From Candidatus Omnitrophota bacterium (GTDB taxonomy: Bacteria > Omnitrophota > Gorgyraeia > Duberdicusellales > 4484-171): DNA of 37,835 nucleotides. The translations under genes and the position numbers were made by a program. The notes beneath the pieces are model-generated. The model ran no database searches, was not told where the DNA came from, and saw nothing but the letters and a program-made list of their open reading frames with translations. The number at the start of each line of letters is the position of its first letter. Position 1 is the stretch's first letter. The DNA lies in NCBI GenBank assembly GCA_023819525.1, contig JAMWCT010000001.1:1-37835 (forward strand), read 5' to 3'. Shown piece by piece: positions 4,535 through 37,835 of the stretch.

Positions 4535-6577
<2,043 letters not shown>

Positions 6578-17322: not shown

Positions 17323-17333
17323 ATTTAGATTTT

Positions 17334-17642
17334 ATGTTTATCATTTCTAATTTTTTAATTGCTTTGGCAAAGGTATTAGAATTAACTTTAACAATACTTT
17401 GGTGGCTTATACTTATAAGAGCAATAATAAGTTGGGTAAATCCAGATCCTTATAATCCAATTGTATTGTTTTTACAAAAGACAACAGAGCCAATACTTTA
17501 TCCAATAAGAAGACTTTTGCCTTTTACTTTAAGATATGGCGTAGATATTTCACCAATAATTGCTTTTCTTCTAATAACCTTTATCAAACATTTTGTAGTT
17601 CAAACATTATTAGATATCGCAATAAAATTAAAATTTGGATAA
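17334..17642 (+). CDS. yggT: YggT-family membrane protein
   Basis: 102 aa. ILWWLILIRAIISWVNPDPYNPI and PILYPIRRLLP with DISPIIAFLL are typical YggT motifs. Confidence 0.85.
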   Translation: MFIISNFLIALAKVLELTLTILWWLILIRAIISWVNPDPYNPIVLFLQKTTEPILYPIRRLLPFTLRYGVDISPIIAFLLITFIKHFVVQTLLDIAIKLKFG

Positions 17643-17654
17643 ATAGGTGATATT

Positions 17655-17780
17655 ATGAAAATTAGTGGTTGGATATTTATGATTTTCTCATGGGTGATGA
17701 TTTTAACTTTAGCAACATTTTGTTTTAGCAAGATTTACAAACACGGCCTATCTACTCACAAAAAACGAAAGACTAAATAG
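17655..17780 (+). CDS. Possible 41-aa single-pass membrane peptide (not in the supplied track)
   Basis: Translated by hand as MKISGWIFMIFSWVMILTLATFCFSKIYKHGLSTHKKRKTK. It has a hydrophobic helix plus a basic tail. It is preceded by taGGTGatatt and overlaps the trmI 3' end convergently by 8 nt. No homolog is recognised. Confidence 0.3.
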   Translation: MKISGWIFMIFSWVMILTLATFCFSKIYKHGLSTHKKRKTK

Positions 17781-18540
17781 GTTTTATTATCTTGGAAGCA
17801 AAAACAATCCAACCAGTATGTGAGGGCATACGTTGTTGTGGTCTAGTCTTTCCTCTTCTAACTAAAATTTTTCGCACTAACACCTCTGAACTTTCGATAT
17901 TAGTAAATCCTTTTTCTTCTAAAGCAAAAACAGTTTTAGTAAGTTGCTCAAAAGTAGGACAAATTGTAGCTAAGCGCGCCCCGCCTTTAAGTGCATCATA
18001 AGCCGCGCTAATTAATTCCCAAGGACTTCCAATGTCAATCATAACAAAATCAACTTCCTTTTCATCAAACTTATCAATTACTTCTTTTAATTTAAATTCT
18101 ACATATTCTGCCAATCCATAACGCTCGACATTCTTTTTAGCATTTTCTAAAAAATTTATATTTTTTTCATAACTATAAACTTTACCCGTTGGTCTTACAA
18201 AATTTGCTAAAACTGTCGTAAGTGCACCGCTACCACTACCACACTCAATTACTTTCGCTCCGGGAAAAATATTAGCATTTAGCAAAATTAAACCTATATC
18301 TTTTGGGTATAGAATTTGAGTTTGCCTTTTTATTTTCATTACTTTTTCATAAAGATAAGGTTTTAAAATATAAAAAACTTCTCCTAAATTTGTTGTAATG
18401 CCCTCACCAAATTCTTTACCTATAATATCTTTTAACTCTATATAACCTAGATCTGTATGGAATTGTCCTATACCGACTTTGACCAAAAAGTTTCTATTTT
18501 CGTCTTTATATAAAAAAACCAAATCTTTATCTTTAATCAT
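17773..18540 (-). CDS. trmI: tRNA (adenine-N1)-methyltransferase (TrmI/Gcd14 family)
   Basis: GAKVIECGSGSGALTTVLANFVRPTGKVYSYE, DFVMIDIGSPW, RPQQRMPSHTGW. Confidence 0.88.
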   Translation of the reverse strand: MIKDKDLVFLYKDENRNFLVKVGIGQFHTDLGYIELKDIIGKEFGEGITTNLGEVFYILKPYLYEKVMKIKRQTQILYPKDIGLILLNANIFPGAKVIECGSGSGALTTVLANFVRPTGKVYSYEKNINFLENAKKNVERYGLAEYVEFKLKEVIDKFDEKEVDFVMIDIGSPWELISAAYDALKGGARLATICPTFEQLTKTVFALEEKGFTNIESSEVLVRKILVRRGKTRPQQRMPSHTGWIVFASKIIKPI

Positions 18541-18623
18541 AACAATAACATCTTACAGATTCGGTCTTATTTTGCAACATTTTTTTATCTGTTTAAAAAA
18601 TTTTTAGTAAAAATTTAAACTTT

Positions 18624-18632
18624 TGATATAAT
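18624..18632 (+). promoter_or_regulatory. Candidate extended -10 promoter (TGaTATAAT) in the divergent trmI/zinc-ribbon intergenic region
   Basis: The TTTTGATATAAT string is identical to the one at 4497-4508 and lies 26 nt upstream of the ATG at 18659. Confidence 0.35.
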
Positions 18633-18658
18633 TAAAATTATTATAAAAAAGGTCATTT

Positions 18659-18883
18659 ATGCCAATACATACTTATTTTTGCAAAAATTGCAAAAAAAAA
18701 TTTGACATTTTAATTAGAACAGTTGAGCATAAGATTAGTTGTCCTTACTGTAATGATACTAATTTAGAAAGGCAATTTTCTGTTTTTGGAATTGTAAGTA
18801 AGGGGGGTGGCTCTTTGGAAGCAAATTCATCTTCGAGCAAATGTAGTGGCTGTTCCGGTGGAAATTGTTCAAGTTGTGCTTAA
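18659..18883 (+). CDS. FmdB-family zinc-ribbon protein
   Basis: YFCKNCKKKFD...SCPYCNDTNLERQFS (two CxxC pairs) plus a Cys/Gly/Ser-rich tail CSGCSGGNCSSCA. Confidence 0.8.
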   Translation: MPIHTYFCKNCKKKFDILIRTVEHKISCPYCNDTNLERQFSVFGIVSKGGGSLEANSSSSKCSGCSGGNCSSCA

Positions 18884-18911
18884 CATTTCTAAAATTTAAG
18901 GAGGCTTTATT

Positions 18912-19232
18912 ATGGCTACATACCAAGATTTTTTGAAATTAGAGCTACGCATAGGAAAAATTGTCGAGATAAATCCGCATCCAAATGCAGATAAACTTTA
19001 TCTTTTAAAAGTAGATATAGGCAACAAAATTATTCAGCTTGTAGCAGGAATTAGACCATATTATAACGAAGATGAACTTAAAGATAAATTAATAGTTGTA
19101 GTTACCAATTTAGAACCAAAAGAAATTAGAGGATATATTTCTGAAGGTATGCTTCTTGCCGCCTCGTCAGCTGAAGATGTAAGTATAATTTCTCCAGATA
19201 AAACAATTGAAGTTGGAAGTAAGGTAAAATGA
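18912..19232 (+). CDS. tRNA-binding domain protein (CsaA/Trbp111-like)
   Basis: FLKLELRIGKIVEINPHPNADKLYLLKVDIG...QLVAGI...VVVVTNLEPKEIRGYISEGMLLA. AAGGAGG RBS at 18898-18904. Confidence 0.85.
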   Translation: MATYQDFLKLELRIGKIVEINPHPNADKLYLLKVDIGNKIIQLVAGIRPYYNEDELKDKLIVVVTNLEPKEIRGYISEGMLLAASSAEDVSIISPDKTIEVGSKVK

Positions 19233-19236
19233 TATT

Positions 19237-19494
19237 ATGTTTTGGGAACTTATTGGTATAGCCGCCGCATCTTTAACGATGTTTTCATTTTTCCCCCAAA
19301 TATTTAAAGTCTTAAGGACAAAATCTGTTAAAGATGTTAGTCCTATAATGCTTCTACAGTTATCTGGTGGAGTTTCTTTGTGGATAGTGTATGGTTTACA
19401 CCTAAAAAACTTAATAATTATTTTGGCAAATAGTATCACTTTATTTAGTCTAATAGTATTATTAATTCTTTATATGTTATATATAAAAAGATAA
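19237..19494 (+). CDS. SemiSWEET (PQ-loop) transporter
   Basis: 85 aa, three TM helices, and the FFPQIFKVLRTKSVKDVS PQ motif. Confidence 0.8.
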   Translation: MFWELIGIAAASLTMFSFFPQIFKVLRTKSVKDVSPIMLLQLSGGVSLWIVYGLHLKNLIIILANSITLFSLIVLLILYMLYIKR

Positions 19495-19498
19495 ACTT

Positions 19499-19816
19499 AT
19501 GCTATCAATATTTGTCCAAATTTTTGGCTTATTTTTTGGAGTTCTATCTAGAACGTTACTGCCCTTTTTTAGAAAACTTTATCAAGGAAAAATAAAGCAT
19601 TTTAAAATAAAGTTTTTTTATCAAGCTGTTGGTGCTTTTTTTCTTTCTCTGATTTTTTCTTTTATAATTTTTCCTCAGTACCCTTTACAGATAAAGACAG
19701 AGGTTGACTATTTAGCAGTTTTTAAATTGTTCTGTATATCTTTTGCTTTTGGTTTTGGATTTAACGCTTTGATAAATGAAGTTGGTGAATGGTTTAAAAA
19801 TGGCAAAAACAACTAA
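19499..19816 (+). CDS. Hypothetical membrane protein
   Basis: 105-aa ORF with about 3 hydrophobic helices. No family is recognised. Confidence 0.4.
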   Translation: MLSIFVQIFGLFFGVLSRTLLPFFRKLYQGKIKHFKIKFFYQAVGAFFLSLIFSFIIFPQYPLQIKTEVDYLAVFKLFCISFAFGFGFNALINEVGEWFKNGKNN

Positions 19817-20951
19817 AATTTTTCTTATAGATTTAAAAAGAGAATATAATTTTTTAAAAAAAGAAATTAATCAACAAATAAATGATTGTCTATGTTCACA
19901 ACAGTGGATTTTGGGAGATAAGGTAGAAGAGCTTGAAGAGGCTATATCAAAATATTTAAATTTAAAGTATACTGTTGGTGTTGCTTCTGGAACAGATGCA
20001 TTAACTATTTCATTACAAGCATTAGCATTAAAGTTAAAGGGTAAAGAGTTTTTTGACGAGGCTGACCAAATTATTACAACACCATTTACTTTTATCGCAA
20101 CAGCTGAGGCGATTTTAAGGGCAGGTGCAAAAATTGTTTTTGTTGATATTGAGCCTGATACATTTAATATTGATCCAAAAAAGATTAAAAATGCCATTAC
20201 AAAAAATACCATTGGAATTTTACCTGTGCACATTTTTGGTTTACCTTCTGCAATGGATGAGATTAAAAAAATTGCTAAAGAAAATGGTTTATTTGTCGTT
20301 GAGGATGTAGCGCAAGCCTTTGGTGCAAAATTTAAAAAAAGACCCGTTGGAAGTTTTGGAGATGTAGCTGCTTTTAGTTTTTTTCCAACTAAAAATTTAG
20401 GTTGTTATGGTGATGGTGGTTTAGTTGCAACAGATGATTTTAAAGTAGTAGAATCTGCTAAAATTTTAAGAAATCACGGACAGGCAAAACAATATATTGC
20501 AGATTATATAGGTTATAATTCAAGGTTGGATTCTATTCAGGCTGCTATACTTTTAGCAAAATTAAAGTTTGTAGAAAAGTTTAATAGTTTACGCAAAAAT
20601 GTTGCAAATAAATACAACCAAGCTTTAGGGGCAATAAAAGGTATTACTATACCAAAACAACCAAAAGATTGCGAACATGTATACCATCTTTACACTATAA
20701 AAATTAATAAAAATTTGCGAGACAAACTACTAAATTTTTTAAACCGAAAAGGTATACAAGCAAGAGTTTATTACCCTGTTGGTTTACACAAAATGAAAGC
20801 ATTTAAGTGCGCAAAATTAACTGATGAACTTAAAATAACTGATGAGGTTACCTTATCAGTAATATCTTTGCCAACACACCCTTTCTTGGAGGCTGAAGAA
20901 ATAGATTATATTATTAAAACTATTGAAAGTTTTTTCGCAAAGTCAAGATGA
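19800..20951 (+). CDS. DegT/DnrJ/EryC1/StrS-family PLP-dependent aminotransferase
   Basis: LKREY...[51 protein letters not shown]. The start is set at ATG 19800 ([16 protein letters not shown]). The track start at 19776 is also possible. Confidence 0.88.
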
Positions 20952-25366: not shown

Positions 25367-25396
25367 TTGACAATAAAATGCAAACTAAAGTATAAT
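25367..25396 (+). promoter_or_regulatory. Consensus sigma70 promoter TTGACA-N18-TATAAT heading the 13-gene accessory operon
   Basis: TTGACA at 25367-25372 and TATAAT at 25391-25396, both perfect hexamers. The first ATG (25406) starts 10 nt after the -10 and has no Shine-Dalgarno sequence. Confidence 0.55.
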
Positions 25397-25405
25397 GATT
25401 TCTGT

Positions 25406-26254
25406 ATGTATGAATTATACTGGAATTTAAAAGAGAAACCTTTCGAAAATACGCCTGATCCAAAATATATTTACTATTCTTCTTTGCATAAAGAAGCAAT
25501 CTCAAGACTTCTATATGCGGTGAGAGAAAGAAAAGGTGCTGCACTTTTAACAGGAGAGTATGGCAGTGGCAAGACCTTATTAAGTAGAATTCTTTTAGAA
25601 GAATTAGCCCAAGAACATATTTATCAGTATGTAGTTATTTTTAATCCAAGATTAGATGCGACAGATTTGTTGCGGACAATACTTATACAGTTATCAGAGC
25701 AAAACCAGTCAACTTCTAAAGCAGAAATACTTTCATCTTTATACAATATATTTTATTCTATTTATCGCTCAAATAGGCACACGGTAATAGTTATAGACGA
25801 AGCTCAAGCAATTATAAATGAGGAAGTTTTTGAAGAGTTAAGATTATTATTAAATTTTCAATTAAATAATGCATTTTTGCTTACTTTAGTTATTTTAGGC
25901 CAACCTGAATTAAAAGTAAAAATTGCAAAATTACCACAATTACTTCAGCGACTTTCTATACGCTATCATTTAAATGCCTTAAATGAAGTAGAGACAAAAG
26001 AGTACATTTTACATAGACTTTCAGTTGCAGGCGCAACAATACAGCCTTTCACCGAAGATGCCTTTAAAGATATCTATTTTTTTTCAGCCGGTATTCCAAG
26101 ACAAATTAATACTATATGCGATTTAGCATTACTTGTTGGTTATGGAGAGAATTTAAAGGAAATTACTAGAGATGTAATTTTAAAAGTGGCTGAAGATATA
26201 AAACCAACACCATCTTTATTAGAAAAACAGCAGGGTTTATATTTTGGAAAATAA
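25406..26254 (+). CDS. ExeA/GspA-like AAA ATPase (COG3267 type)
   Basis: MYELYWNLKEKPFENTPDPKYIYYSSLHKEAISRLLYAV matches the family N-terminus. Walker A GEYGSGKT, Walker B VIVIDEAQ, then LVILGQPEL and GIPRQINTICD. The start is set at ATG 25406. The track's TTG at 25367 is the -35 hexamer. Confidence 0.8.
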   Translation: MYELYWNLKEKPFENTPDPKYIYYSSLHKEAISRLLYAVRERKGAALLTGEYGSGKTLLSRILLEELAQEHIYQYVVIFNPRLDATDLLRTILIQLSEQNQSTSKAEILSSLYNIFYSIYRSNRHTVIVIDEAQAIINEEVFEELRLLLNFQLNNAFLLTLVILGQPELKVKIAKLPQLLQRLSIRYHLNALNEVETKEYILHRLSVAGATIQPFTEDAFKDIYFFSAGIPRQINTICDLALLVGYGENLKEITRDVILKVAEDIKPTPSLLEKQQGLYFGK

Positions 26255-26258
26255 ATAT

Positions 26259-27266
26259 ATGATTAAAATTTCCGATATTTTTGATAAACATAAAAAAAAT
26301 AAAATTGAAAACAAAGAAAAAGCAAAAGACTTAATTTCTAAAACAACCGATGCACCTGTCTCTTATTCTGAAGGCGATCAAGAAAGTGTTTCTTTGCAAG
26401 TAATTAATATAACTACCAACCTGATAGATTTAGCGCTTAAAATTTACAAACCGAATGCCCTTAATTTAGATTTAATAAATAAATTAAAAAACTGTATCAA
26501 TATGCTTGTAGAATTTAAAAATTTGGAAGATGATTTTTTAAAAGTATTTTTTAAAGACTATCCAGAAGACTCTACCTATTTAGTCTATCATATAGCAAAT
26601 ACTTCTATTTTAAGTTTAGAAGTCGCTAAAACTTTAAAGTATGATAACGAAAGGCTTTTTTATTTAGGTTTAGGAGCTTTTTTGCATAAAATAGGTTTAA
26701 CTACAATTTTAGACATAACCTTAGAAGATTCTCAATTAGAGCAAGCAAAAAGTGAAAAAATAAAGACACATCCTTTGGTGGGCAGTAAAATTTTAAAAGA
26801 ATTTGAAAAAGAATTTGATTCAACTACAATTAAAATTGTTGAGCAGAGTTTTGAAAGGATAGATAAAAGCGGTTATCCTTTAGGGATAGATGAACCAATA
26901 CCAGAAGCTCAAATAGTAAATATTGTCCAAGTATATGAGAGTTTGGTTCATAAAAGAAATTATCGGGAAAAATTTAATCCACTTAAAGCAATGAAAATAA
27001 TTATAGAAGATAAAGGTTTTGTGAATAATAAAATAAAAAAGGCATTAATTGAAAGGGTTGGTTTTTATCCACCAAATACACTCGTACTTCTTAATACAAA
27101 AGAAGAAGCAATTGTAATAGCAACAAATTTTAAAAATCCTTTAAGGCCGATAGTAAAAAAAATATCTACTCAAAATAAGATCCAAATTACAGAGCCAAAG
27201 ATTATTAATTTAGCCAAAGATACCCATTTTTATATTGAGAAAATTTTAACTCAAAATGGCCAATAA
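26259..27266 (+). CDS. Degenerate HD-GYP-like domain protein
   Basis: GAFLHKIG (HD replaced by HK), KTHPLVGSKIL, SFERIDKSGYPLGI (HHE replaced by SFE, GYP retained), IVNIVQVYESLVHKRNY (the DxxD position reads QxxE). The start is set at ATG 26259. The track start at 26244 is TTG. Confidence 0.6.
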   Translation: MIKISDIFDKHKKNKIENKEKAKDLISKTTDAPVSYSEGDQESVSLQVINITTNLIDLALKIYKPNALNLDLINKLKNCINMLVEFKNLEDDFLKVFFKDYPEDSTYLVYHIANTSILSLEVAKTLKYDNERLFYLGLGAFLHKIGLTTILDITLEDSQLEQAKSEKIKTHPLVGSKILKEFEKEFDSTTIKIVEQSFERIDKSGYPLGIDEPIPEAQIVNIVQVYESLVHKRNYREKFNPLKAMKIIIEDKGFVNNKIKKALIERVGFYPPNTLVLLNTKEEAIVIATNFKNPLRPIVKKISTQNKIQITEPKIINLAKDTHFYIEKILTQNGQ

Positions 27267-28962
27267 AAAGGTTTTTTTTGTTTCAATAAGTATTCTTTTT
27301 TTAGTTTTTGTTATCTCATATTATTTAACCACACTTATCTATAAAGAAAAATTTGATTCAGATTTTTTGCAATATTCTAAATATTTTGAAAAGACTACCA
27401 GAGAAAACGACGCGCTTAATTTAGCGAAAAAAATATTTGAAAGTGCACAATTTAAAATAAATGTTTTACAGGATAAAATATATCAATTAGAGAAAAAAAA
27501 TAAAAGTCTAATTCAAGAGATAAAAGATAAACAAAAAGAAATAGAAAAAATCAATCAAAATAAATCATTAGCGGAGAAAGAACTTAATCAGCTCTTAAAA
27601 GATAAAGTTTTAATAGATCAAGAGATTAAGAAACTAAAAGAAAAATTAACCAATTATGAAATAGATAATAGAAGATTGGCTGAAGAGAATTTAGTTCTAA
27701 AAGAGGAAATTGAAAAATTTCAAAATGAAAATTCAGCTTTAAATAAAACTGTAAATTTGCTAAAAGAAAATATAAATAATAAAGAGGCTGTAGAAAAAAA
27801 ACTTAAAGAAAGAGTTGTTTACTTAAACAATCTTTTGTTAGAAAAAGACAATTTAATAACTACAAAGAATGCTCAAATAAATAATCTTAATACAGTAAAA
27901 GTAAATTACGAAGAAAAAATAAATGAATTAATAGAAGAAAACTCTAATTTAAAAAAATCACTTTTGTCTTTACAGGAAGAATTATCTACAAAAAAATTAG
28001 AATTAACCGAATTATTAAAGCAAAAATATATGCAAAAACAGCAAAATTTAAAAATGCAGGAAACGATTAATTCTATATCAGCCACACTAAGCGAAAAAGA
28101 TCAAATGTTGCAAGCTACAGAAAGCGAAAATGAAGCTTTAAAAAGCACGGTTAAAAAACAAATTAAAGAATTTCAGGATTTGCAAAAACTTTATAATAAA
28201 GTTTCAACTGAGTATAATATATTAAATGATAAGTTAAAAAATTTAGAAGAAGAAAAAAACCAACTTCAAAGTCAATATTTAAACTATAAACTTGAAACAC
28301 AAAAACAACTAGAGGAAACTACCGCCAAATTGCTATCTACACAAAGAGAATTAAACAATTTAAAAAATGAATTAGAGAACCAAAAGCAACTTAATCTAAC
28401 AACAAATAATCAATTGTTACAGTTTACAGAAGAGATAAAAGAAAAAGAGGCAAGAATAGGAGAGCTTCAAAATCAAAAAACTTCCTTAGAAGAAGAAAAA
28501 TACACGCTTAATGATAAAATGAAAGACATACAAAACAAATATAATCAACTTTTGGTAAACCACAATAGTCTACAAGAAAAATTTTCTAATTTGCAAAAAA
28601 ATTTTGAAGAAATTAAAGTCGAAAAAGAAGCGCAGATAAATAAATTAATTGAGGAAGCCAAATTACTTAAGCAAGAAGTTTCTTTAAAAGAAAAAGCAGT
28701 TTCCAATTTAAAGGAACAATTTGAGCATTTAAACCAAAAATATATAGTAGTTTCCAAAGAAAATTTAGATTTAAACTCGCAAAATTATCAATTAAGGCAA
28801 CAGATAGATGAGTTAAATGTAAAAATAGATAATATTTTAAAAGATAAGGAGAAAACCATTAAAATAAAACAACAATTAAGTCCAAAAGTTACCAAAAAAA
28901 CTAAAGTAGAAGAGTTAAAAAATAAAGTTGAGGAAAAATTAAGAGAAATTATAGCTTTTTAG
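27256..28962 (+). CDS. Membrane-anchored long coiled-coil protein
   Basis: One N-terminal TM helix (VFFVSISILFLVFVISYYLTTLIY), then about 520 aa of E/K/L/N/Q-rich heptad-like sequence. No enzymatic motif is present. Confidence 0.6.
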   Translation: MANKKVFFVSISILFLVFVISYYLTTLIYKEKFDSDFLQYSKYFEKTTRENDALNLAKKIFESAQFKINVLQDKIYQLEKKNKSLIQEIKDKQKEIEKINQNKSLAEKELNQLLKDKVLIDQEIKKLKEKLTNYEIDNRRLAEENLVLKEEIEKFQNENSALNKTVNLLKENINNKEAVEKKLKERVVYLNNLLLEKDNLITTKNAQINNLNTVKVNYEEKINELIEENSNLKKSLLSLQEELSTKKLELTELLKQKYMQKQQNLKMQETINSISATLSEKDQMLQATESENEALKSTVKKQIKEFQDLQKLYNKVSTEYNILNDKLKNLEEEKNQLQSQYLNYKLETQKQLEETTAKLLSTQRELNNLKNELENQKQLNLTTNNQLLQFTEEIKEKEARIGELQNQKTSLEEEKYTLNDKMKDIQNKYNQLLVNHNSLQEKFSNLQKNFEEIKVEKEAQINKLIEEAKLLKQEVSLKEKAVSNLKEQFEHLNQKYIVVSKENLDLNSQNYQLRQQIDELNVKIDNILKDKEKTIKIKQQLSPKVTKKTKVEELKNKVEEKLREIIAF

Positions 28963-28965
28963 ATT

Positions 28966-29793
28966 ATGTTTTGGATAAATTTTTTGTTATTTTTTTTCTT
29001 TTTTCTACATCCTGCCTTCTCAGAAAACCTTATAGAAAAAATAAAAATAACATACAAAAAAGCAAATTATTATTATCAGCGTGGCGAATACCAAAAAGCT
29101 GAGAAAGAATATCTGGAAACTTTAAGGCTTATCGATGAATATAAGATTAACCTAAAAGATAAAAATCAGGCAAGCAGTAAAAAAGAAAAAACAACCTTAT
29201 ATACTATTGGCGAAGGCGATATTTTATATATTTCTGTCTGGCAAAATGAAGATTTAAATCAAGAGATAATTGTAAGACCAGATGGATATGCATCTTTTCC
29301 TTTAATTGGAGATTTAAAGATATCTGGTTTAACAATACCTCAATTAGACAAACTACTTACCGAAAAATTGAAAGAATATATACGTAGACCAGAAGTTTCA
29401 ATAACTTTGAGAAAAATTGGAGGAAGCAGGGTTGTTTTATTAGGTGAAGTTACTTGGCCAGGGGTATACCATGTTGATGGAACAAAGACGGTTTTAGAAT
29501 TAATCGGAATGGCCGGGGATTTTACTCTTGACGCGGTAAAATCAAGTGTGATTTTAATAAGAGGTGGATTTTTAAATCCAGAAGTTAGACGACTAAATAT
29601 AGCAAATGTATTAAAAGGAGACCTAACTGATAATGTTGTGCTTCAATCAGAAGATATAGTCTTTGTTCCAAAAACCTTTATTTCAAACCTAAACTATGTT
29701 ATAAATCAGATCCTTGAGCCGCTTTCAGGTGGTAGTATGGTTTATTCAAAATGGCATTCCTTTGACCGTCTGCCAAGAGAAAAAAAGCCTTGA
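28966..29793 (+). CDS. Polysaccharide-export (Wza-like Poly_export + SLBB) periplasmic/outer-membrane protein
   Basis: Signal peptide MFWINFLLFFFFFLHPAFS. YTIGEGDILYISVWQNEDLNQEIIVRPDGYASFPLIGDLKISGLTIPQLDKLL (Poly_export), then VVLLGEVTWPGVYHVDGTKTVLELIGMAGDFT (SLBB). There is no lipobox Cys. Confidence 0.78.
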   Translation: MFWINFLLFFFFFLHPAFSENLIEKIKITYKKANYYYQRGEYQKAEKEYLETLRLIDEYKINLKDKNQASSKKEKTTLYTIGEGDILYISVWQNEDLNQEIIVRPDGYASFPLIGDLKISGLTIPQLDKLLTEKLKEYIRRPEVSITLRKIGGSRVVLLGEVTWPGVYHVDGTKTVLELIGMAGDFTLDAVKSSVILIRGGFLNPEVRRLNIANVLKGDLTDNVVLQSEDIVFVPKTFISNLNYVINQILEPLSGGSMVYSKWHSFDRLPREKKP

Positions 29794-29800
29794 AAATAAA

Positions 29801-31636
29801 ATGTTTAAGGTTCTTCTATGTATCCCGCCAGATTACGAATATAGTTACCCACCTCTTGGGACAGCTTCGCTTTGCGGTTTTTTGAAAGCAAAAAAAATAG
29901 ATACCCTACAAATGGATTTAAACATACTTTATAGAAAATTTCTTTTAAATAAAATTGAAGCAGATTTTTTAGATACCCATCAAAAAAAGAAAATTTTAAA
30001 GCAAATTCTCTTTAATTTCTTTCATAAAAAATTAAAAGATAGATATTATTCTGATTTTTTACCAAGAAATACTGATAGAATTTTTCCATTTTTACCTTAT
30101 GAAAACAATTCAAATAGTTCCTTTTATTTTACCGAAAGACTACTTTCTTCTGAATATCTTTTTTATTATCTTTCTGATATCAAAGAAAATACTTTTTATC
30201 AATTTTACCAACAAGAAAAAATTTTAGATTTTTTGGATAAAGAAAAAATTAATTTATGTGGAATATCTGTTATCTCCCCTTCACAGGTAATTGCATCTTT
30301 AACCTTAGGTTTTTTAATTAAAAAGAACTTACCGCATATACATATAACTTTTGGTGGACAATGGGTGACTTTATATAGGAAGGCTTTACTTAAAAGAAAA
30401 AAATTTTTTTCCTGTTTTGATAGTTTAGTTGTCTTTGAAGGAGAAACCCCTCTTTATAGACTTTGCTGTATGTTAAAGCAAAAAAGAAAGTATTATATTA
30501 AAAATTTAATATTTAAAGAGACAAAAGAAGATTTTACCTATAACCATACTGAAGAAGACCTAAATAAATTGCCAACTCCAGATTTTGATGGCCTGCCTTT
30601 GAAAGAATACGACGCAAATGACTTTAAAACTATAACATTAACTTATGAAACCTCAAGAGGTTGTTATTGGGCAAGATGTGCATATTGCGTAGATTTACCT
30701 TTACCTAAACCAACTTATAGAAAAAAAGCAGCATATTTAGTTTCAAATGATATAAAAAAATTAAAGAAAAAGTATAAAGCAACAAATCTTCTTTTTAGCG
30801 ATCCAGCGCTTTCGCCGCGTCAAATGCTTGAGGTTTCAAAAGAACTACTAAAAAACCGAATAAAGATAAAATGGTGGTGTATGGCTAGACCAGATAGTGG
30901 TTTTAAGTATGAAATTTTTAAAGCTGCTTTTAGGGCAGGACTTACACATATAAATTTTGGCTTTGAAACAGCAAATGATAGATTGTATAATCTTCTTTCT
31001 AAAGGAACAAAATTAGAAATAGTTAAAAAAGTAATTAGAGATTGCAAAAAAGCAGGTATTTTAGTAGACCTGCAAACAATGTTAGGACTTCCAAAAGAAG
31101 GCTTTCAAGAAGGTTTAAATACAATAGAGTTTTTGGTAAAAAATAAAAAATACATCTTTAATGTTAGTTTCAATCTTTATTATCTTACCCCTCAAAATCA
31201 TATATTTTGTCAACCAGAAAAATATCAAATAGAATATAAGCAAAAATACCCATTTAGTTTTTTTATACCTTTTAGAAATAGAGAAGGCCTGACAAGAAAA
31301 GAAGCTTATCTACTTTGGTTACTTTATGAAAAACTTATCAATAAAGAAAAAACTTACAATTTAGGTCCTTTAGAATCTATTAAAATACCTAATTATATAG
31401 AAGAAAAAATAATTCGTTTTAAGTTGCTTGAAGAATCAATTAAATTGTATTGTCTTTTTGATACAAAATCTAAAAAATTTATAGTTATGGATAGAATAAG
31501 GAAGAATATGTTGAAGCTACTGGAGAATAAAAATTTTCACCATTTAGCAAAAGAGCAAATTGATTTTTTAAATTATCTTCTAAAAGAAAAATTTTTAAAA
31601 AAAACTCCAAAATATGGCCGAGAAACTGCTCTTTAA
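29801..31636 (+). CDS. B12-binding-domain radical SAM protein
   Basis: N-terminal KVLLCIPPDYEYSYPPLGTASLCGFL and ISVISPSQV (B12-binding Rossmann pattern). Radical SAM cluster region TSRGCYWARCAYC, followed by NFGFETANDR. The start is set at ATG 29801, 7 nt after the upstream stop. Confidence 0.75.
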   Translation: MFKVLLCIPPDYEYSYPPLGTASLCGFLKAKKIDTLQMDLNILYRKFLLNKIEADFLDTHQKKKILKQILFNFFHKKLKDRYYSDFLPRNTDRIFPFLPYENNSNSSFYFTERLLSSEYLFYYLSDIKENTFYQFYQQEKILDFLDKEKINLCGISVISPSQVIASLTLGFLIKKNLPHIHITFGGQWVTLYRKALLKRKKFFSCFDSLVVFEGETPLYRLCCMLKQKRKYYIKNLIFKETKEDFTYNHTEEDLNKLPTPDFDGLPLKEYDANDFKTITLTYETSRGCYWARCAYCVDLPLPKPTYRKKAAYLVSNDIKKLKKKYKATNLLFSDPALSPRQMLEVSKELLKNRIKIKWWCMARPDSGFKYEIFKAAFRAGLTHINFGFETANDRLYNLLSKGTKLEIVKKVIRDCKKAGILVDLQTMLGLPKEGFQEGLNTIEFLVKNKKYIFNVSFNLYYLTPQNHIFCQPEKYQIEYKQKYPFSFFIPFRNREGLTRKEAYLLWLLYEKLINKEKTYNLGPLESIKIPNYIEEKIIRFKLLEESIKLYCLFDTKSKKFIVMDRIRKNMLKLLENKNFHHLAKEQIDFLNYLLKEKFLKKTPKYGRETAL

Positions 31637-31988
31637 ACTTACAGGCTCAAGCATGTATCCATTAATAAGGGAGGGAAGTTATATTTTAGTTAAGCCAACA
31701 AAAAAAATTTTTTTTGGTGAACTTGTTGTTTTCAAAGAGGGCGATAAGATTATCTGTCACCGTTTAATTTTTAAAAAAAATCATTTTTTTTATTCTAAGT
31801 CTGATACTGAACTTTTTAGAATAGAAAAATTAAATATAGAAAATATTTTAGGAAAAGTGGTAATGGTTATAGATTTTAAAAAACGTATATTTTTAAATAA
31901 TTTTTTTTGGTATCTCAAAAGTTTATTATTTTTTTTCTTTACCCCAATTTTAGTAATATTTCTTAATTTTTTTAAAAAAAATGAATAG
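31614..31988 (+). CDS. S26B (Sec11/SipW, Ser-His type) signal-peptidase-like protein with a C-terminal TM helix
   Basis: GSSMYPLI (box B Ser13), GELVVF (box C), ICHRLI (box D with His49, not Lys), SKSDTE (weak box E). Hydrophobic tail FFWYLKSLLFFFFTPILVIFLNFF. There is no N-terminal TM or signal sequence. Confidence 0.6.
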   Translation: MAEKLLFKLTGSSMYPLIREGSYILVKPTKKIFFGELVVFKEGDKIICHRLIFKKNHFFYSKSDTELFRIEKLNIENILGKVVMVIDFKKRIFLNNFFWYLKSLLFFFFTPILVIFLNFFKKNE

Positions 31989-33411
31989 CATTTATATAGT
32001 TGAAGAGCACCATCAAGTTTTAAGAATATGGAGAAAGAAAAAAATTAAAAATTTAGATGTTTTGCACATAGATGCACATCTTGACTGGCAAGTTTTTCTG
32101 GCAAAACCTATAGAACAGATTTTAAGAGATTCAAAAACAATAAAACAACTAAAAGAAGAATTAGAAAACACACTTCTATACTTTCAATACCAAAAGAATT
32201 TAGGAGAACAAACAAATATAGGAAATTACCTATATCCAGCACAAAAAGAAAATATAATAAAAAATATCTGGTGGGTGGTTCCTTCAAAAAATTTATATAA
32301 AGATATAAGCTTAATAAAAAAATTTTTCTTTTATTTAAAAAAAGATTCTCGATTAGCAGAAAAACCAATTTTTAAATTAAAAAATAAAATTTTGAAAGTA
32401 AATTTTGCAGAGCAGGTTTTTTACATTTGCACACTTTATGACCTACCTAAATTTAAAGATGAGGTTATATTAGATATAGATATAGATTTTTTTGTAATTA
32501 ATAATTTAAAAAAAACAGACAATGTAACTGATATCGCAAAAAGAAAACTTTGGATACAGCCAAAAGAAGTAGCAACCCTCTTAAAAGAAAAAGTAAAAAA
32601 CTCTAAAATCATTACTATTTCTTATTCTACTAACGATGGTTTTACTCCAATAGAGTTTAGGTATATAGCTAGTGAACTGGCATTTTATTTTTCACCTCAA
32701 AAATTCAAAAATAGATTTTTAAAAAGTTTTAAAGCGCATATAAATTTTTTCGCATTTAAAGAAACAAAAAAAAGTTTTTACTATTGGCAAGCAGTCAAAT
32801 TAGATAAAGCTTATAGATTTAAAGATAATAACTTTGGTTTTCTTTATTTGAAAATAAAAAAATTTAATTTAGCTAAAAAAGAATTTGAAAATATTTTATC
32901 TGTAGACAAAACTAACCCAGCGGCTCTTTTAGGTTTAGGATTTATATATTTTCATAAGAAAAAATTAAAAGAAGCCAAAAAAAATCTTTATAAAGCTTAT
33001 TATTTTTCAAAAATTCAAAGATTTTTTTCTATCTACAGAAAAGCAATATTTCTTTTGGCTAAATTAGAATTTAGGTTAAAAAATTTTAGAGTATCTAAAA
33101 AATTTTTTTTAAAATTTATCAAAAGCGAATCAACTGAACCAGAGGCTTATTTTTATCTTGCAAGACTGCTCATTTTAGAAAAAAAATTTCTAAAAGCAAC
33201 CATTTACTTAAAAGATGCTGTAAAGTTAGGCTTGGAGGTTGATGGTTTATTTTATTTAGCAAAAATTTTAACCTTCCTAAAGAAAAACAAATATGATATA
33301 ATAAATTTTATAAATCAAAGAATAATCTTTATAAAAAACAAAAAATTAAAAAAGATAAAATATGTAAGAGAAATTTTAAAAAAATTTAAATATGCAGGAG
33401 ATAATCTATAA
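31981..33411 (+). CDS. Arginase/deacetylase-fold (UPF0489-like) domain fused to TPR repeats
   Basis: The N-terminus has IVEEHHQVL, LHIDAHLDW (D31-x-H33-x-D35) and ILDIDIDFF (D165/D167/D169), which mimic the ureohydrolase metal-ligand motifs. The C-terminal half has TPR-like repeats (AALLGLGFIYFHKKKLKEAKKNLYKAY, EAYFYLARLLILEKKFLKATIYLKDAV). Confidence 0.55.
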   Translation: MNSIYIVEEHHQVLRIWRKKKIKNLDVLHIDAHLDWQVFLAKPIEQILRDSKTIKQLKEELENTLLYFQYQKNLGEQTNIGNYLYPAQKENIIKNIWWVVPSKNLYKDISLIKKFFFYLKKDSRLAEKPIFKLKNKILKVNFAEQVFYICTLYDLPKFKDEVILDIDIDFFVINNLKKTDNVTDIAKRKLWIQPKEVATLLKEKVKNSKIITISYSTNDGFTPIEFRYIASELAFYFSPQKFKNRFLKSFKAHINFFAFKETKKSFYYWQAVKLDKAYRFKDNNFGFLYLKIKKFNLAKKEFENILSVDKTNPAALLGLGFIYFHKKKLKEAKKNLYKAYYFSKIQRFFSIYRKAIFLLAKLEFRLKNFRVSKKFFLKFIKSESTEPEAYFYLARLLILEKKFLKATIYLKDAVKLGLEVDGLFYLAKILTFLKKNKYDIINFINQRIIFIKNKKLKKIKYVREILKKFKYAGDNL

Positions 33412-33685
33412 AAAAAATCCTAATTTTGTAGCAAGAGAGATTGTCAATGAATTAGTCTTGGTTCCTATATATAAGGATACAAAAGAACTAAACTGTATTT
33501 ATACTTTAAATAAACCTGCTAAAGTTTTTTGGCAACTTTTAGATGGAAAAAGAACGATTTCGCAAATAAAAAAAGAACTCTTAAAAAAATTTTCTTCTAT
33601 AGATTTAGATAATAATTTTGAAAAGTTAATAAAAGAACTTCTAGAAATAAAAGCAATAAAAAAATCATATGAAACCAAAATTTAA
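33392..33685 (+). CDS. PqqD-family peptide chaperone (RiPP recognition element)
   Basis: 97 aa. FVAREIVNELVLVP...IYTLNKPAKVFWQLLDGKRTISQIKKELLKKF...LIKELLEIKAIK fits the PqqD beta-strand plus three-helix pattern. Confidence 0.8.
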   Translation: MQEIIYKKNPNFVAREIVNELVLVPIYKDTKELNCIYTLNKPAKVFWQLLDGKRTISQIKKELLKKFSSIDLDNNFEKLIKELLEIKAIKKSYETKI

Positions 33686-33866
33686 TCCAAAAATTACCAA
33701 AATCAAATTAAATCCAGAACAAGCAGTTTTAATCTGCAGTTGTTATCGCTCAGGAAGAGTTATAGCTACTAGTGGTACTCGTTCAAGCACTCGGGTTTGT
33801 GGAAGAGGAACTGTAAGAGGATATCCTAGATATGCAACCACAACAACCAGCAGAAGCTGGAGTTAA
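33669..33866 (+). CDS. Candidate RiPP precursor peptide (65 aa)
   Basis: MKPKFNPKITKIKLNPEQAVLICSCYRSGRVIATSGTRSSTRVCGRGTVRGYPRYATTTTSRSWS. The leader is Lys-rich. The core has 8 Arg, 3 Cys and many Ser/Thr/Gly, and ends in Ser. Its start overlaps the PqqD stop by 17 nt, and an rSAM/SPASM gene begins 7 nt after its stop. Core DNA is about 44% GC versus about 24% for the leader (hand count). Confidence 0.65.
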   Translation: MKPKFNPKITKIKLNPEQAVLICSCYRSGRVIATSGTRSSTRVCGRGTVRGYPRYATTTTSRSWS

Positions 33867-34917: not shown

Positions 34918-35969
34918 AAGCTCAAAGTGATTTTTTTTATAAATTGCATAAAGAGGCAATAAAAAGAAGAATTCCTTTGAGAGTTATGTTTGAGATCACA
35001 TATAGATGTAATTTTAGCTGTCAATATTGCTATTTGCCAAAAAGCTATCGAAACATTAAAGAATTAAATAAAAAAGAGGTTTTTTCTATATTAAAAGATT
35101 TAGCAAAAGAAGGGTGTTTTTATTTAGGTTTTAGTGGGGGTGAACCTTTTTTAAGAAATGATTTTTTAGAGATATTAGAATTTTCTAAAAGGTTAGGATT
35201 TTTTATAACTATAAATACAAATGCTTCTTTAATTAACAAAAAAGTTGCAAAAAAAATCATTGATTTGGGCATAAATAAGATTGATATAAATATTATTAGT
35301 CTAAAAGAAGCTATTTTTAGAAAAGTTACAAAAAGTTTACGTTTTAATAAAGTTTTAGATGCTATTTATTTTTTAAAAAGTAAAATTCCTTTGGGATTTA
35401 AAACTTGTATAACAAAATATAATTTTAACCAAATAGAAAATATAAAAAAATTTGCTAAAAGTATGGGGGTTTTTTTAAGATTAGACGATAGACTAAGCCT
35501 TTGTTTAAATGGAGATAACCGTCCTTATAGATTTAGTATATATAAGATTGAAGACCTAGATTTAGATTTATATTTAGAGAAAAAAGTTTCAGTTAAAAAA
35601 TTTAAGGCTATAGATATATTTAGTTGTAAAGCAGGATTTTTACAATGCGCCATTAATCCGGCTGGTAAAATTAAAATATGTGTTGGCATAGATGCCCCTT
35701 TATATAGTTGTAAAAAAAATTTTAAAAGAGCCTGGCAAAGATTGGAAGATTTTTTAAATTTAATTAAAATAGATGATAGATTTAAATGTTTTAGATGTAA
35801 ATTAAAAAATTTTTGTGACTGGTGTCCCGCAAAGTCTTTTCTTGAAAATAAGGACTTTATAAGTTGCGATAAGGAAAGTAGGTTTTTTGCATATCAAGCT
35901 TACAAAAAATATTATGAGCAAACAAATATATTTAAAAATAGCAGATACAGTAGTTTTGTTGGAAAGTAA
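34908..35969 (+). CDS. Radical SAM/SPASM peptide maturase, paralog 2
   Basis: CNFSCQYC, FSGGEPFLR, CKAGFLQCAINPAGKIKIC, CFRCKLKNFCDWC and a final SC. Confidence 0.82.
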   Translation: MQIKAQSDFFYKLHKEAIKRRIPLRVMFEITYRCNFSCQYCYLPKSYRNIKELNKKEVFSILKDLAKEGCFYLGFSGGEPFLRNDFLEILEFSKRLGFFITINTNASLINKKVAKKIIDLGINKIDINIISLKEAIFRKVTKSLRFNKVLDAIYFLKSKIPLGFKTCITKYNFNQIENIKKFAKSMGVFLRLDDRLSLCLNGDNRPYRFSIYKIEDLDLDLYLEKKVSVKKFKAIDIFSCKAGFLQCAINPAGKIKICVGIDAPLYSCKKNFKRAWQRLEDFLNLIKIDDRFKCFRCKLKNFCDWCPAKSFLENKDFISCDKESRFFAYQAYKKYYEQTNIFKNSRYSSFVGK

Positions 35970-36822
35970 ATTTGAATATGCAAAGAACGACAAAGGCATA
36001 GCACCAGAGCGTTTCAGTAATTTTTTTTATAAAAAAGCAATACCGGATATAAAGATAGAGATACAAATAGTAGAAAAGTTCCCCCAAGACTTTTACAGGC
36101 CGGATGGTTTTTCAACAATTCACCCACAGGATAAGTCTTTATGTTGGCAATGGGAAGAAAAAAAAGATTATTTTATTTTTAGAAGTTTAGTAGAAGGTAA
36201 ATTTCAATTAGCACAAATTGAAAAAAATTTCAAAAATGTGAGATTTTTTGTCCTGCCACAAAAAAATAAATTTATATGGTTTGCCACAGATGTAATTTAT
36301 GATTTTTTACAAATACTTTTTTTAGTTTATTTTGCAAAAACAAAAAAAGGGATATTTTTACATGCAAGTGGTATAAATTTATATGGCAGTGGTTTTGTCT
36401 TTGCAGGAAAATCAGGCGTAGGAAAAACTACTTTAGCCAAACTTTGGAATAAATATTCTGATGCAGAAATTTTAAACGATGATAGGATAATTGTGCGAAA
36501 ACAAAATAAGCAATTTTTTATATATGGTTGCCCTTGGCATGGAGCTTTTAGCGATTATTTAAAATCAAGGATGCATCCAGCGCCTTTAAAAAAAGTATTT
36601 TTTATCTATCCGGCTAAAAAAAATATTCTAAAAAAGTTAAATTTTTTTGATGCATTTAAACTTCTATATCCGGCTATTTTTCCTGTCTTTTGGGATAGGC
36701 TTTCGTTAAATAATATATTTTTATTTTTAAACGATTTGTTAGAAAATATAGTTTGTTTCTCTTTAGGATTTAGAAAGACAAAGGATATAATTAAATTTTT
36801 TAAAGAAAAGTGTTTAAATTAG
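35914..36822 (+). CDS. HPr-kinase-like P-loop kinase
   Basis: IFLHASGINLYGSGFVFAGKSGVGKTTLAKLW...ILNDDRIIV matches the HprK C-terminal catalytic core (lHg..v...G.GvLi.G.SG.GKS..A..L......l..DD). The start is set at ATG 35914 (MSKQIYLKIAD). The track start at 35887 is possible. Confidence 0.72.
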   Translation: MSKQIYLKIADTVVLLESKFEYAKNDKGIAPERFSNFFYKKAIPDIKIEIQIVEKFPQDFYRPDGFSTIHPQDKSLCWQWEEKKDYFIFRSLVEGKFQLAQIEKNFKNVRFFVLPQKNKFIWFATDVIYDFLQILFLVYFAKTKKGIFLHASGINLYGSGFVFAGKSGVGKTTLAKLWNKYSDAEILNDDRIIVRKQNKQFFIYGCPWHGAFSDYLKSRMHPAPLKKVFFIYPAKKNILKKLNFFDAFKLLYPAIFPVFWDRLSLNNIFLFLNDLLENIVCFSLGFRKTKDIIKFFKEKCLN

Positions 36823-37835
36823 CTTATAAAAATTTTAGTCTTGCAACTCATATAAAAAGCATAAGTCTAAAAAAAATAATTTTTGCTCAATTTGATTTAA
36901 CTTATAAGTGTGATTATTCTTGTAATTACTGTTATACAATTTGTTTCAACAAAGAAAAATATTTGAAAAAAGAATTAGATACCAACAAAATAAAAGCTAT
37001 TTTAGATAAACTTTATAATGAAGGTATCCTATGGCTTACTTTTAGTGGAGGAGATCCATTAACAAGAAGTGATTTTTTAGAAATTTATAAGTATTCAAAG
37101 GAAAAAGGTTTTCTTATAAGTATCCTTACAAATGGTTATAGGATAGACTTAAAACTAATCGATTTTTTCAAAAAGTATAGACCCTTTTTGATTGAGATTA
37201 CTTTAAATTCTATAAATCCCAAAACTTTTAAAAAAATTATCCAAAAAAATTTAAATTCAGAAAAGGTGCTTTCTGTAATAAAAAAATTAAAAAAAGAAGG
37301 GCTACCACTAAAAATAAAGACCCAAGTTATAAAGAATAATTTAGATGAAATTCCAAAAATAAAAAAATTTCTTCAAAAACTAAATTTAAAATTTTACCCA
37401 TCTTCTATAATATATCCAAGACTAAATAAAAATAAATTTCCTTGCTCGTTAAGGATAGATAAAGAGAAGTTTTTCAAAAAAAATTTGGGTTGTAATCAAA
37501 ATTTTAAGAAACATTTTAAATTTTTTCCCTGCACAGTTTTGAATACAGAGGGAATTCAGATTGATCCTTATGGAAATGTTTTTCTATGCGAACTTATAAG
37601 AAAACCTAAAGTAAATATTTTAAGATGTGACTTAAAAACTCTATACAATAAACTTATAGATTTTTTAAAAGATTTAGAAAACAGGTATAAAGATAAATGC
37701 CTTTGTGCAAGATGTAGATATATATATAGTTGTATGTGGTGTCCAGGGAAGGCATATTTAGAGACAAATAGTTTTATAAAACCAATAGATTATTACTGCC
37801 TACAAAAAGAAATTTTAAATTATGGAAAAAGTATC
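36810..37835 (+). CDS. Radical SAM/SPASM peptide maturase, paralog 3 (GTG start; 3' end cut by the window edge; absent from the supplied ORF track)
   Basis: Hand translation gives (V/M)FKLAYKNFSLATHIKSISLKKIIFAQFDLTYKCDYSCNYCY...LTFSGGDPLTRSDFLEIYKYSKEKGFLISILTNG...CTVLNTEGIQIDPYGNVFLC...CLCARCRYIYSCMWC...YYC. The frame is open from the stop at 36801-36803 to nt 37835 (342 codons). The only plausible start is GTG at 36810. It is most similar to paralog 1. Confidence 0.8.
   Translation, partial: MFKLAYKNFSLATHIKSISLKKIIFAQFDLTYKCDYSCNYCYTICFNKEKYLKKELDTNKIKAILDKLYNEGILWLTFSGGDPLTRSDFLEIYKYSKEKGFLISILTNGYRIDLKLIDFFKKYRPFLIEITLNSINPKTFKKIIQKNLNSEKVLSVIKKLKKEGLPLKIKTQVIKNNLDEIPKIKKFLQKLNLKFYPSSIIYPRLNKNKFPCSLRIDKEKFFKKNLGCNQNFKKHFKFFPCTVLNTEGIQIDPYGNVFLCELIRKPKVNILRCDLKTLYNKLIDFLKDLENRYKDKCLCARCRYIYSCMWCPGKAYLETNSFIKPIDYYCLQKEILNYGKSI

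Follow-up and report, generated by a model that had tools for sequence, protein, structure and literature searches.

A family of candidate RiPP precursors encoded beside PqqD-like, radical SAM/SPASM and ScmC-type proteins in Omnitrophota and other phyla

Closest described pathways

Linear polyphosphorylated peptides (LPPs; Popov et al., Nat Commun 2026) have been called restricted to Bacillota; an enzyme of the signal peptidase I (SpI) type was reported in 2026 as their leader peptidase, and the discrete recognition elements (RREs) that serve LPPs and lasso peptides, both modified ribosomal peptides (RiPPs), recognize the motif Y-x-x-P-x-[IV] (PMC13381572). In paeninodin and pseudomycoidin the C-terminal Ser is phosphorylated by an HprK-like kinase, and PsmN attaches hexose to this phosphate group (PMC6993621). 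Enzymes of the PF12640 family convert Arg in peptides to ornithine (PMC10028609, PMC12703449). Here we describe a locus that appears to bring relatives of these enzymes together with radical SAM (rSAM) proteins. It lies in a 37,835-nt stretch (the window) of contig JAMWCT010000001.1 from a Candidatus Omnitrophota bacterium, around a 65-residue open reading frame (ORF) at 33669-33866 on the forward strand. Comparative and codon-position evidence puts this ORF beyond chance, and the ORF probably encodes the precursor of an RRE-dependent, multiply modified RiPP.

The LPP pathway of Bacillota is the nearest known system. In both, an SpI homologue, a discrete RRE and an HprK-like protein occur together in one cluster; the toolkit also includes a nucleotidyltransferase and an exporter, seen here in the homologous locus L001 and in other loci. 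Clusters of both kinds encode one to several precursors with a conserved N-terminus and a variable C-terminus, and both are embedded in polysaccharide loci. One of the two precursor types described below (type B) also shares the Y-x-x-P-x-[IV] motif in its leaders. The differences are as clear. Neither rSAM enzymes nor an arginase are described in LPP clusters, whereas the window encodes three rSAM/SPASM proteins, one B12-binding rSAM protein and a peptide arginase homologue. The LPP leader reads YxxPxVLxHQxIxFETxxS, but the leader here follows KF.P.ITR[IV]KLNPEQAVL.C.C and has no HQxIxFET. The LPP phosphosite is Ser3 of the core; here no Ser is conserved at that place, and the family instead has a near-invariant C-terminal Ser and three or four conserved Cys.

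Other pathways share parts of this inventory. Paeninodin and pseudomycoidin likewise combine a C-terminal Ser with an HprK-like kinase, a PqqD-like RRE and hexose addition of the NTP_transf_5 type (PMC6993621), but crosslinking here is presumably the task of rSAM/SPASM enzymes and the leader protease is SpI-like; neither an Asn-synthetase-like lasso cyclase nor a B2 cysteine protease was found among the scanned window ORFs of at least 90 residues. The SynChlorMet (SCM) and GeoRSP cassettes also contain a PqqD homologue, one or more rSAM/SPASM proteins and an HprK-related protein. The proteins of the window and of a second locus, L063, nevertheless fall far short of the SCM equivalog cut-offs (TIGR04248-04251) and also miss those of GeoRSP, scoring 23 against 100 bits for ScmD, 21-35 against 125 for ScmC and 72-83 against 400 for ScmE, and on these scores they are remote SCM relatives rather than members. 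To our knowledge, the TIGRFAM text identifies no SCM precursor. Like the present locus, sactipeptide and ranthipeptide systems have an RRE, maturases of the rSAM/SPASM type and Cys in the core. Among solved structures SkfB is nearest to the first maturase (rSAM1), and there are weak matches to the AlbA, StsB and PapB models; however, no known precursor model matches, and the kinase, nucleotidyltransferase, arginase and SpI homologue are additional here. Peptide-arginase RiPPs (landornamide OspR; FlmR/OhkR) resemble the locus in having a PF12640 enzyme with three catalytic motifs beside an Arg-containing precursor, but the enzyme here is fused to a TPR domain, the precursor lacks DD(I/V)LF and is not a proteusin, and rSAM/SPASM and kinase steps are added. 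Assignment to a strict SCM cassette, to the LPPs or to the lasso peptides was considered and rejected once the defining features of each had been compared. Literature searches returned no description of this combination of RRE, rSAM/SPASM and HprK-like proteins. Judged by its predicted proteins, the system is best placed near the LPP and phospho-lasso pathways, as a relative in which radical SAM enzymes would do the crosslinking and the precursors form a family of their own.

The precursor gene and its family

A preliminary description of the window, made from its letters alone, had proposed a precursor at exactly these coordinates, with the same translation. Length by itself is weak evidence for such an ORF because many antisense ORFs of 30-86 residues lie nearby. 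Residues 22-65, which that description took as the core, comprise 8 Arg, 8 Ser, 8 Thr, 5 Gly and 3 Cys (C23, C25 and C44), no Lys, Asp or Glu, and a net charge of +8; a TTTT run and the C-terminal Ser are present, all as had been stated. The G+C count of 60 in 135 nt (44.4%) for 33732-33866 was also correct, but the figure of 16 in 66 for the leader fits 33666-33731, and the ORF itself has 15 G+C in its first 63 nt (23.8%). Against a window mean of 28.4% and a standard deviation of 5.7% for 135-nt windows, the core stands about 2.8 standard deviations high and is the top G+C peak of the last 8 kb. It is not unique, as about six peaks of at least 42% occur elsewhere in housekeeping genes, the highest of them reaching 50% at ~10.9 kb within the IMPDH gene.

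The excess is confined to codon position 2. G+C at the three codon positions is 0.32/0.82/0.23 for residues 22-65 and 0.36/0.85/0.21 for residues 27-65, compared with about 0.3/0.25/0.17 in neighboring genes, and position 3 is at the level of the window. The amino-acid sequence combined with window codon usage predicts a core G+C of 0.447, and 0.455 is observed. A 65-residue homologue, 85% identical and in the same gene order, is present in two Candidatus Omnitrophica metagenome-assembled genomes (locus L001). The two genes differ at 36 nucleotides, distributed 8/6/22 over the codon positions; only the precursor frame is open in both, and seven of the eight core Arg are retained. The dN/dS ratio is 0.115, the lowest among the eight cluster genes compared, and 0.16 for residues 22-65. 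In the window, in L001 and in L002 the gene lies between the PqqD and rSAM genes, and in the window its first 17 nt are shared with the end of the PqqD gene. The earlier proposal that selection on the peptide drives the G+C content is thus upheld, and these comparisons show a real gene whose protein product is under purifying selection.

They also effectively refute the alternative that the G+C-rich stretch is a structured RNA or other nucleotide-level element with an incidental ORF. A terminator-like 5-bp G+C hairpin with a T-rich tail does lie at 33847-33860 (+), inside the last precursor codons; the hairpin is identical in L001, as are the last 21 nt of the ORF including the stop codon. However, third codon positions collect most of the substitutions and the G+C excess is seen at position 2 only. 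A scan revealed no Rfam family above the gathering threshold, ARAGORN found no tRNA or tmRNA, and folding of both strands against shuffled sequences gave z-scores of -0.38 and -0.02, neither of them significant. Conservation of the G+C-rich stretch at the nucleotide level, which the preliminary description had named as the sign of an RNA element, was looked for across the family and is absent; the A+T-rich leader is the conserved part. A promoter scan produced no signal above shuffled expectation. The hairpin could tune the ratio of precursor to enzyme transcripts.

Homologous loci place the ORF in a wider family. Eighty loci with ScmC-type relatives were gathered from GTDB species representatives, most from Omnitrophota and the distant ones from Desulfobacterota, Aminicenantes, Nitrospirota, KSB1, WOR-3 and Elusimicrobia. 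Searches with tblastn and a leader hidden Markov model (HMM) yielded 77 related small ORFs, one to six per locus. That all share the strand of the ScmC-type gene reflects how they were selected, and L044 has one further candidate on the opposite strand. When members added by inspection are counted, at least 67 of 83 loci with an ScmC-type gene carry a family member, and in about ten of the member-less loci the contig extends less than about 2 kb upstream of that gene. Type A members, from Omnitrophota and a few other phyla, follow M.RKPKF[KRN]P.[IV]TR[IV]KLNPEQAVL.C.C[YWF], after which 30-60 residues cannot be aligned; in most type A loci the PqqD gene stands directly upstream of the precursor. 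Type B members, from other phyla, have about 57 residues and the pattern ..Y.KP.[IV]..V.L..EEAVL..CK…C…C…GS.

In the family alignment (window numbering) L14, A19, V20 and C25 do not vary, and conservation reaches 90% or more at K2, P7, E17 and L21. The column of C44 is invariant as well, but it sits in the unalignable core and may have been forced by the aligner. The boundary between leader and core, placed earlier between residues 21 and 22, is not supported, as conservation runs on through C25 and Y26. Beyond this point two properties persist. Among 69 distinct full-length members derived from the loci, 61 end in Ser, seven in Thr and one in Arg, and 65 have three or four Cys downstream of AVL. 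When 5.8 billion proteins were searched with a profile, 485 clusters were returned, all labeled 'hypothetical' and without a Pfam domain; 118 members were retrieved from them. Ser is the last residue in 117 of these (preceded by Gly in 115), the number of Cys is exactly three in 116, and an aromatic-x-x-P-x-[IVLF] motif occurs in every one. Ten diverse members gave no meaningful match to NCBIfam or Pfam at E-values up to 10. By these alignments the precursor belongs to a large unnamed family, with hundreds of members, that has a conserved Lys/Pro-rich leader, a hypervariable core with three or four Cys and a C-terminal Ser, and the terminal Ser is the most conserved feature of the core. Conservation of a terminal Ser and of Cys, which the preliminary description had proposed to look for, is borne out, for Cys in number. 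The charge of +8 is not a family property, the range being -6 to +8.

The cores are otherwise unalignable. Leaders of paralogues within a locus are 55-98% identical at the nucleotide level (mostly 75-98% outside locus L038), but their cores mostly share 20-45% without gaps, which is near random. Only the aromatic residue after CxC (Y26) is semi-conserved, recurring in most type A members. The aromatic-X-X triplets YRS, YPR and YAT, once suggested as sites for cyclophane formation, read YSA, NPR and YNT in the 85% identical homologue; the conserved motifs expected of triceptide-type cyclophane RiPPs are absent, and the suggestion is not supported.

The loci also vary in copy number and form. 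Up to six paralogues occur in one locus (L038, with copies at 234, 1997, 7105, 7317, 7608 and 7832), and arrays are present in L006 and L012. L038 and L040 carry CC in place of CxC and a single rSAM gene, with conserved leaders and unrelated cores. Leader-only copies of 38-39 residues, with a stop codon just past CxC, are found in L005 (2576-2692), L012/L013 (1612-1728) and L009 (3377-3496); they may be decayed paralogues or leader decoys.

Neighboring enzymes and a possible pathway

The features of the cluster are listed in Table 1. The position of the ORF beside a PqqD-family RRE and three rSAM/SPASM genes agrees with its earlier classification as a RiPP-type precursor. The PqqD protein gives weak matches to the PqqD and ScmD models of NCBIfam. 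For rSAM1 the matches are to NirJ2, PqqE, MftC, ScmE, AlbA and StsB, for rSAM2 to MftC, PqqE, GeoRSP and StsB, all below their cut-offs; the solved structure closest to rSAM1 by sequence is the thioether-forming SkfB (E=2e-11). The best NCBIfam match of the B12-binding protein is TIGR03975, a RiPP maturation rSAM C-methyltransferase (96 bits, below cut-off), and the gene is syntenic in L001, L030 and L032.

Table 1. Features of the precursor locus in the window
Feature	Position	Strand	Remarks
Polysaccharide export protein (Wza-like)	28966-29793	+	PF02563 and SLBB domains; same position occupied in L001; context only
B12-binding rSAM enzyme	29714-31636 (probable start ATG 29801)	+	PF04055, PF02310; candidate peptide C-methyltransferase
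SpI homologue (S24), archaeal/endoplasmic reticulum type, 124 aa	31614-31988	+	PF00717 E=4e-10; C-terminal hydrophobic segment
Peptide arginase homologue (PF12640, OspR family) with C-terminal TPR domain	31981-33411	+	PF12640 29.3 bits vs cut-off 27
PqqD-family RRE, 97 aa	33392-33685	+	PF05402 30.3 bits vs cut-off 23.4
Putative precursor peptide gene	33669-33866	+	ATG start, 65 aa + stop; family HMM E=1.2e-18
Conserved N-terminal block, residues 1-26 (MKPKFNPKITKIKLNPEQAVLICSCY)	33669-33746	+	Leader with RRE-type F-x-P-x-I and CxC-aromatic motif
Hypervariable core, residues 27-65	33747-33863	+	8 Arg, no Lys; Cys44 (33798-33800), Ser65 codon 33861-33863
rSAM/SPASM-type maturase 1 (rSAM1), 347 aa	33874-34917	+	PF04055 E=6e-24
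rSAM/SPASM-type maturase 2 (rSAM2), 353 aa	34908-35969	+	PF04055 E=6e-24
ScmC-type HprK-like P-loop protein, 302 aa from ATG 35914	35914-36822	+	PF27840 ScmC; candidate kinase for C-terminal Ser
rSAM/SPASM maturase 3 (rSAM3), cut by window end	36810-37835	+	PF04055 E=4e-24

The ScmC-type protein matches the HprK_rel_B, ScmC and Hpr_kinase_C models weakly, and a G-S-G-K P-loop and an L-N-D-D-R motif are invariant among its relatives; in PsmK the DD pair forms the metal site (PMC6993621). The top Foldseek matches of an AlphaFold2 (AF2) model (pLDDT 88.4) are PEPCK and HprK/P structures only, and the modeled protein thus has an HprK/PEPCK fold. The link drawn earlier between the terminal Ser and an HprK-like enzyme is strengthened from both sides, by the frequency of that Ser in the family and by a neighbor with this fold, a P-loop and an NDD motif.

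Two genes had been missed in the preliminary description, the peptide arginase homologue and the SpI-like protease. The SpI homologue scores 35.8 bits with the archaeal signal peptidase model TIGR02228 (sigpep_I_arch), below the cut-off of 51.85, while that of type B locus L063 passes the cut-off for archaeal signal peptidase I. It contains GSSMYP and ICHRL, and G-x-S-M-x-P and x-H-R-[LV] are kept across loci, with a spacing similar to that of Ser29 and His68 of LppS, both of which were shown to be catalytic (PMC13381572). By this analogy the SpI homologue is a candidate leader peptidase. In the arginase homologue, EEHH, DAHLD and LDIDIDFF correspond to the three motifs that define peptide arginases, EEH(N/H), DXHXD and LDIDLDYF, which hold six metal ligands (PMC10028609); the equivalent residues H10, D31, H33, D35, D165 and D167 are invariant in the homologue alignment. 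A profile of 14 homologues matches the peptide arginase OspR (PDB 8brp, E=6.9e-10); PDB searches that started from one sequence each (PqqD, SpI, arginase-TPR) gave nothing informative, and OspR was found only by the profile search. The gene product is thus a peptide arginase homologue by its motifs, predicted to convert Arg to ornithine on the core, and its presence best explains the Arg-rich, Lys-free composition of this core.

These assignments suggest the following route. The PqqD protein would bind the strand of the leader that carries F/Y-x(1,2)-P-x-[IV] and present the peptide, and the three rSAM/SPASM enzymes would crosslink the core via its conserved Cys, most likely, by analogy with related maturases, through thioether bonds. 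The B12-binding rSAM enzyme may C-methylate the peptide, and the arginase-TPR protein would hydrolyze some of the eight core Arg to ornithine. The ScmC-type kinase is predicted to phosphorylate Ser65, and the NTP_transf_5 protein may extend the phosphate with sugar, as in pseudomycoidin. The SpI homologue would remove the leader, possibly after Ala19, and the ABC transporter would export the product.

What the comparisons establish, at the level of sequence, is that the gene is real, that the family exists and that the association of genes holds. Several points weigh against the proposed route beyond this. The evidence on the precursor and its product comes from sequence comparison and structure prediction, and the window copy lacks a Shine-Dalgarno site; of 29 window genes, only 4 have a motif of this kind no more than 20 nt from the start codon and the other 25 do not, the L001 copy has AAGGAGG, and 64 of the 77 family members have a strong site. 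The NTP_transf_5 and exporter genes are not visible in the window because it ends inside rSAM3, although they lie directly downstream in L001 and occur in many other loci. Thioether formation at Cys is simply the commonest chemistry of rSAM/SPASM enzymes of this kind and not a deduction, because the number of rSAM genes (one to three) does not track the number of Cys; three Cys are found with one rSAM gene or with three, so the idea of one Cys for each of three SPASM enzymes, raised in the preliminary description, fails. Between the motif Tyr and the cleavage site of LppA there are 16 residues (PMC13381572); with equal spacing here, the cut would follow the invariant Ala19 (33723-33725) and leave the CxC motif in the core; this is a weak prediction, since position -3 is Glu here and Phe in LppA. 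As the kinase of the LPPs, the one SpI/HprK system so far characterized, targets Ser3 of the core, the choice of the terminal Ser rests on its conservation and on the lasso-peptide precedent. Finally, the correlation that speaks indirectly for the arginase step, in which type A cores at loci with the arginase gene average 4.2 Arg and 1.2% Lys, compared with 1.7 Arg and 2.8% Lys at loci without it (Mann-Whitney p=2e-5), ignores phylogenetic relatedness and includes some truncated loci.

Could the ORF be a genuine precursor that undergoes different chemistry? The rSAM/SPASM enzymes might form C-C or C-O crosslinks, such as cyclophanes on Tyr or Trp, or epimerize residues, and the ScmC-type protein might act on another hydroxyl or serve as a scaffold. 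The chemistry of rSAM/SPASM enzymes is diverse, and every NCBIfam match lies far below its family cut-off; the aromatic residue that follows CxC in most type A members, the lack of correspondence between rSAM and Cys numbers and the action of the LPP kinase at Ser3 point the same way. We nonetheless consider this unlikely, if deserving some weight, given that Cys number is the most constant property of the core, that C25 is invariant while the aromatic-X-X triplets are not conserved, and that the closest solved relative of rSAM1 forms thioethers. Nor is any Ser or Thr conserved near the predicted cleavage site, the sole near-invariant hydroxyl being that of the C-terminal Ser (occasionally Thr). 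A role of the peptide as a carrier or primer, its phosphoserine elaborated with sugars by NTP_transf_5 and the exopolysaccharide machinery into a peptide-linked polysaccharide, seems very improbable to us. Cores this variable, with several paralogues in a locus, are more typical of bioactive peptides under diversification than of a carrier; a dedicated exporter of the MsbA/HlyB-like kind is encoded, and many type B loci have no polysaccharide genes within 7 kb. These observations stand against the Poly_export, Wzz, Wzy or flippase genes that flank the cassette in the window, L001 and ten or more further loci spread over different phyla, against the transfer of hexoses to the pseudomycoidin phosphate by PsmN, and against the location of the LPP and paeninodin clusters of Bacilli in capsule loci.

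A precursor of a multiply modified RiPP remains our preferred reading. A bolder version would make the family the unrecognized substrate of ScmC-type cassettes and a new RiPP class, of Cys-crosslinked, ornithine-bearing peptides that are phosphorylated on an invariant C-terminal Ser and then glycosylated or joined to exopolysaccharide; we regard this as distinctly doubtful. If true, the class would extend over Omnitrophota, Desulfobacterota, Aminicenantes, Nitrospirota and other uncultured phyla, and its products would be ribosomal peptide-glycan conjugates belonging to the cell envelope or the biofilm matrix, not free antibiotics.

Significance and genomic setting

The family offers a concrete, alignable set of candidate substrates for a widespread, uncharacterized type of RiPP cassette with an RRE, rSAM/SPASM and an HprK-like protein, and its peptides are unnamed in Pfam, NCBIfam and public annotation. 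The locus appears to join the kinase, nucleotidyltransferase and signal peptidase toolkit described for the LPPs of Bacillota in 2026 with radical-SAM crosslinking, and would extend both to uncultured phyla. Testable predictions follow from the near-invariant Ser at the C-terminus, the constant number of Cys and the correlation between arginase and Arg. The pairing of constant leaders with hypervariable cores suggests enzymes tolerant of their substrates, of possible use in peptide engineering, and the repeated placement beside polysaccharide export genes hints at a role in the envelope or biofilm.

Type A loci are arranged in the order (Poly_export, B12-rSAM), SpI, arginase-TPR, PqqD, precursor, rSAM1, rSAM2, ScmC, rSAM3, ABC exporter, NTP_transf_5 (Wzz and further genes). 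In L001 the sequence continues past the cluster with the MsbA/HlyB-like ABC exporter, the NTP_transf_5 nucleotidyltransferase, Wzz, Wzy and a flippase. The minimal module of type B consists of PqqD, one rSAM/SPASM gene, precursor, ScmC, SpI and NTP_transf_5, and its single rSAM protein best matches rSAM3 in most loci. This six-gene module, with a 57-residue precursor ending in Gly-Ser, is found in L063 (4905-9271) and in similar type B loci (L047-L069); it is widespread in sediment metagenomes and is the source of most of the listed hits among the 485 protein clusters.

The first 25 kb of the window contain housekeeping genes, including TGT, TrmD, L19, FolD, IMPDH, GuaA, DnaE and GlnRS. The window genome appears to start translation largely without Shine-Dalgarno sites, unlike most related loci, which have strong sites at their precursor genes. 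Upstream of Poly_export, an AAA_22/STAND-like ATPase, an HD_5 phosphohydrolase and a 568-residue coiled-coil protein are encoded in the same order in the window (25367-28962, +) and in L001 (1810-5288). Genes for exopolysaccharide export and assembly (Poly_export, Wzz, Wzy and flippase) repeatedly surround the cassette, in distant phyla included. In the window this context is represented by the Wza-like gene listed in Table 1 and in L001 by genes at 5292-6119 and 16959-20198; it recurs in L015, L017, L020, L025, L030, L039, L051, L053, L054, L074 and L079.

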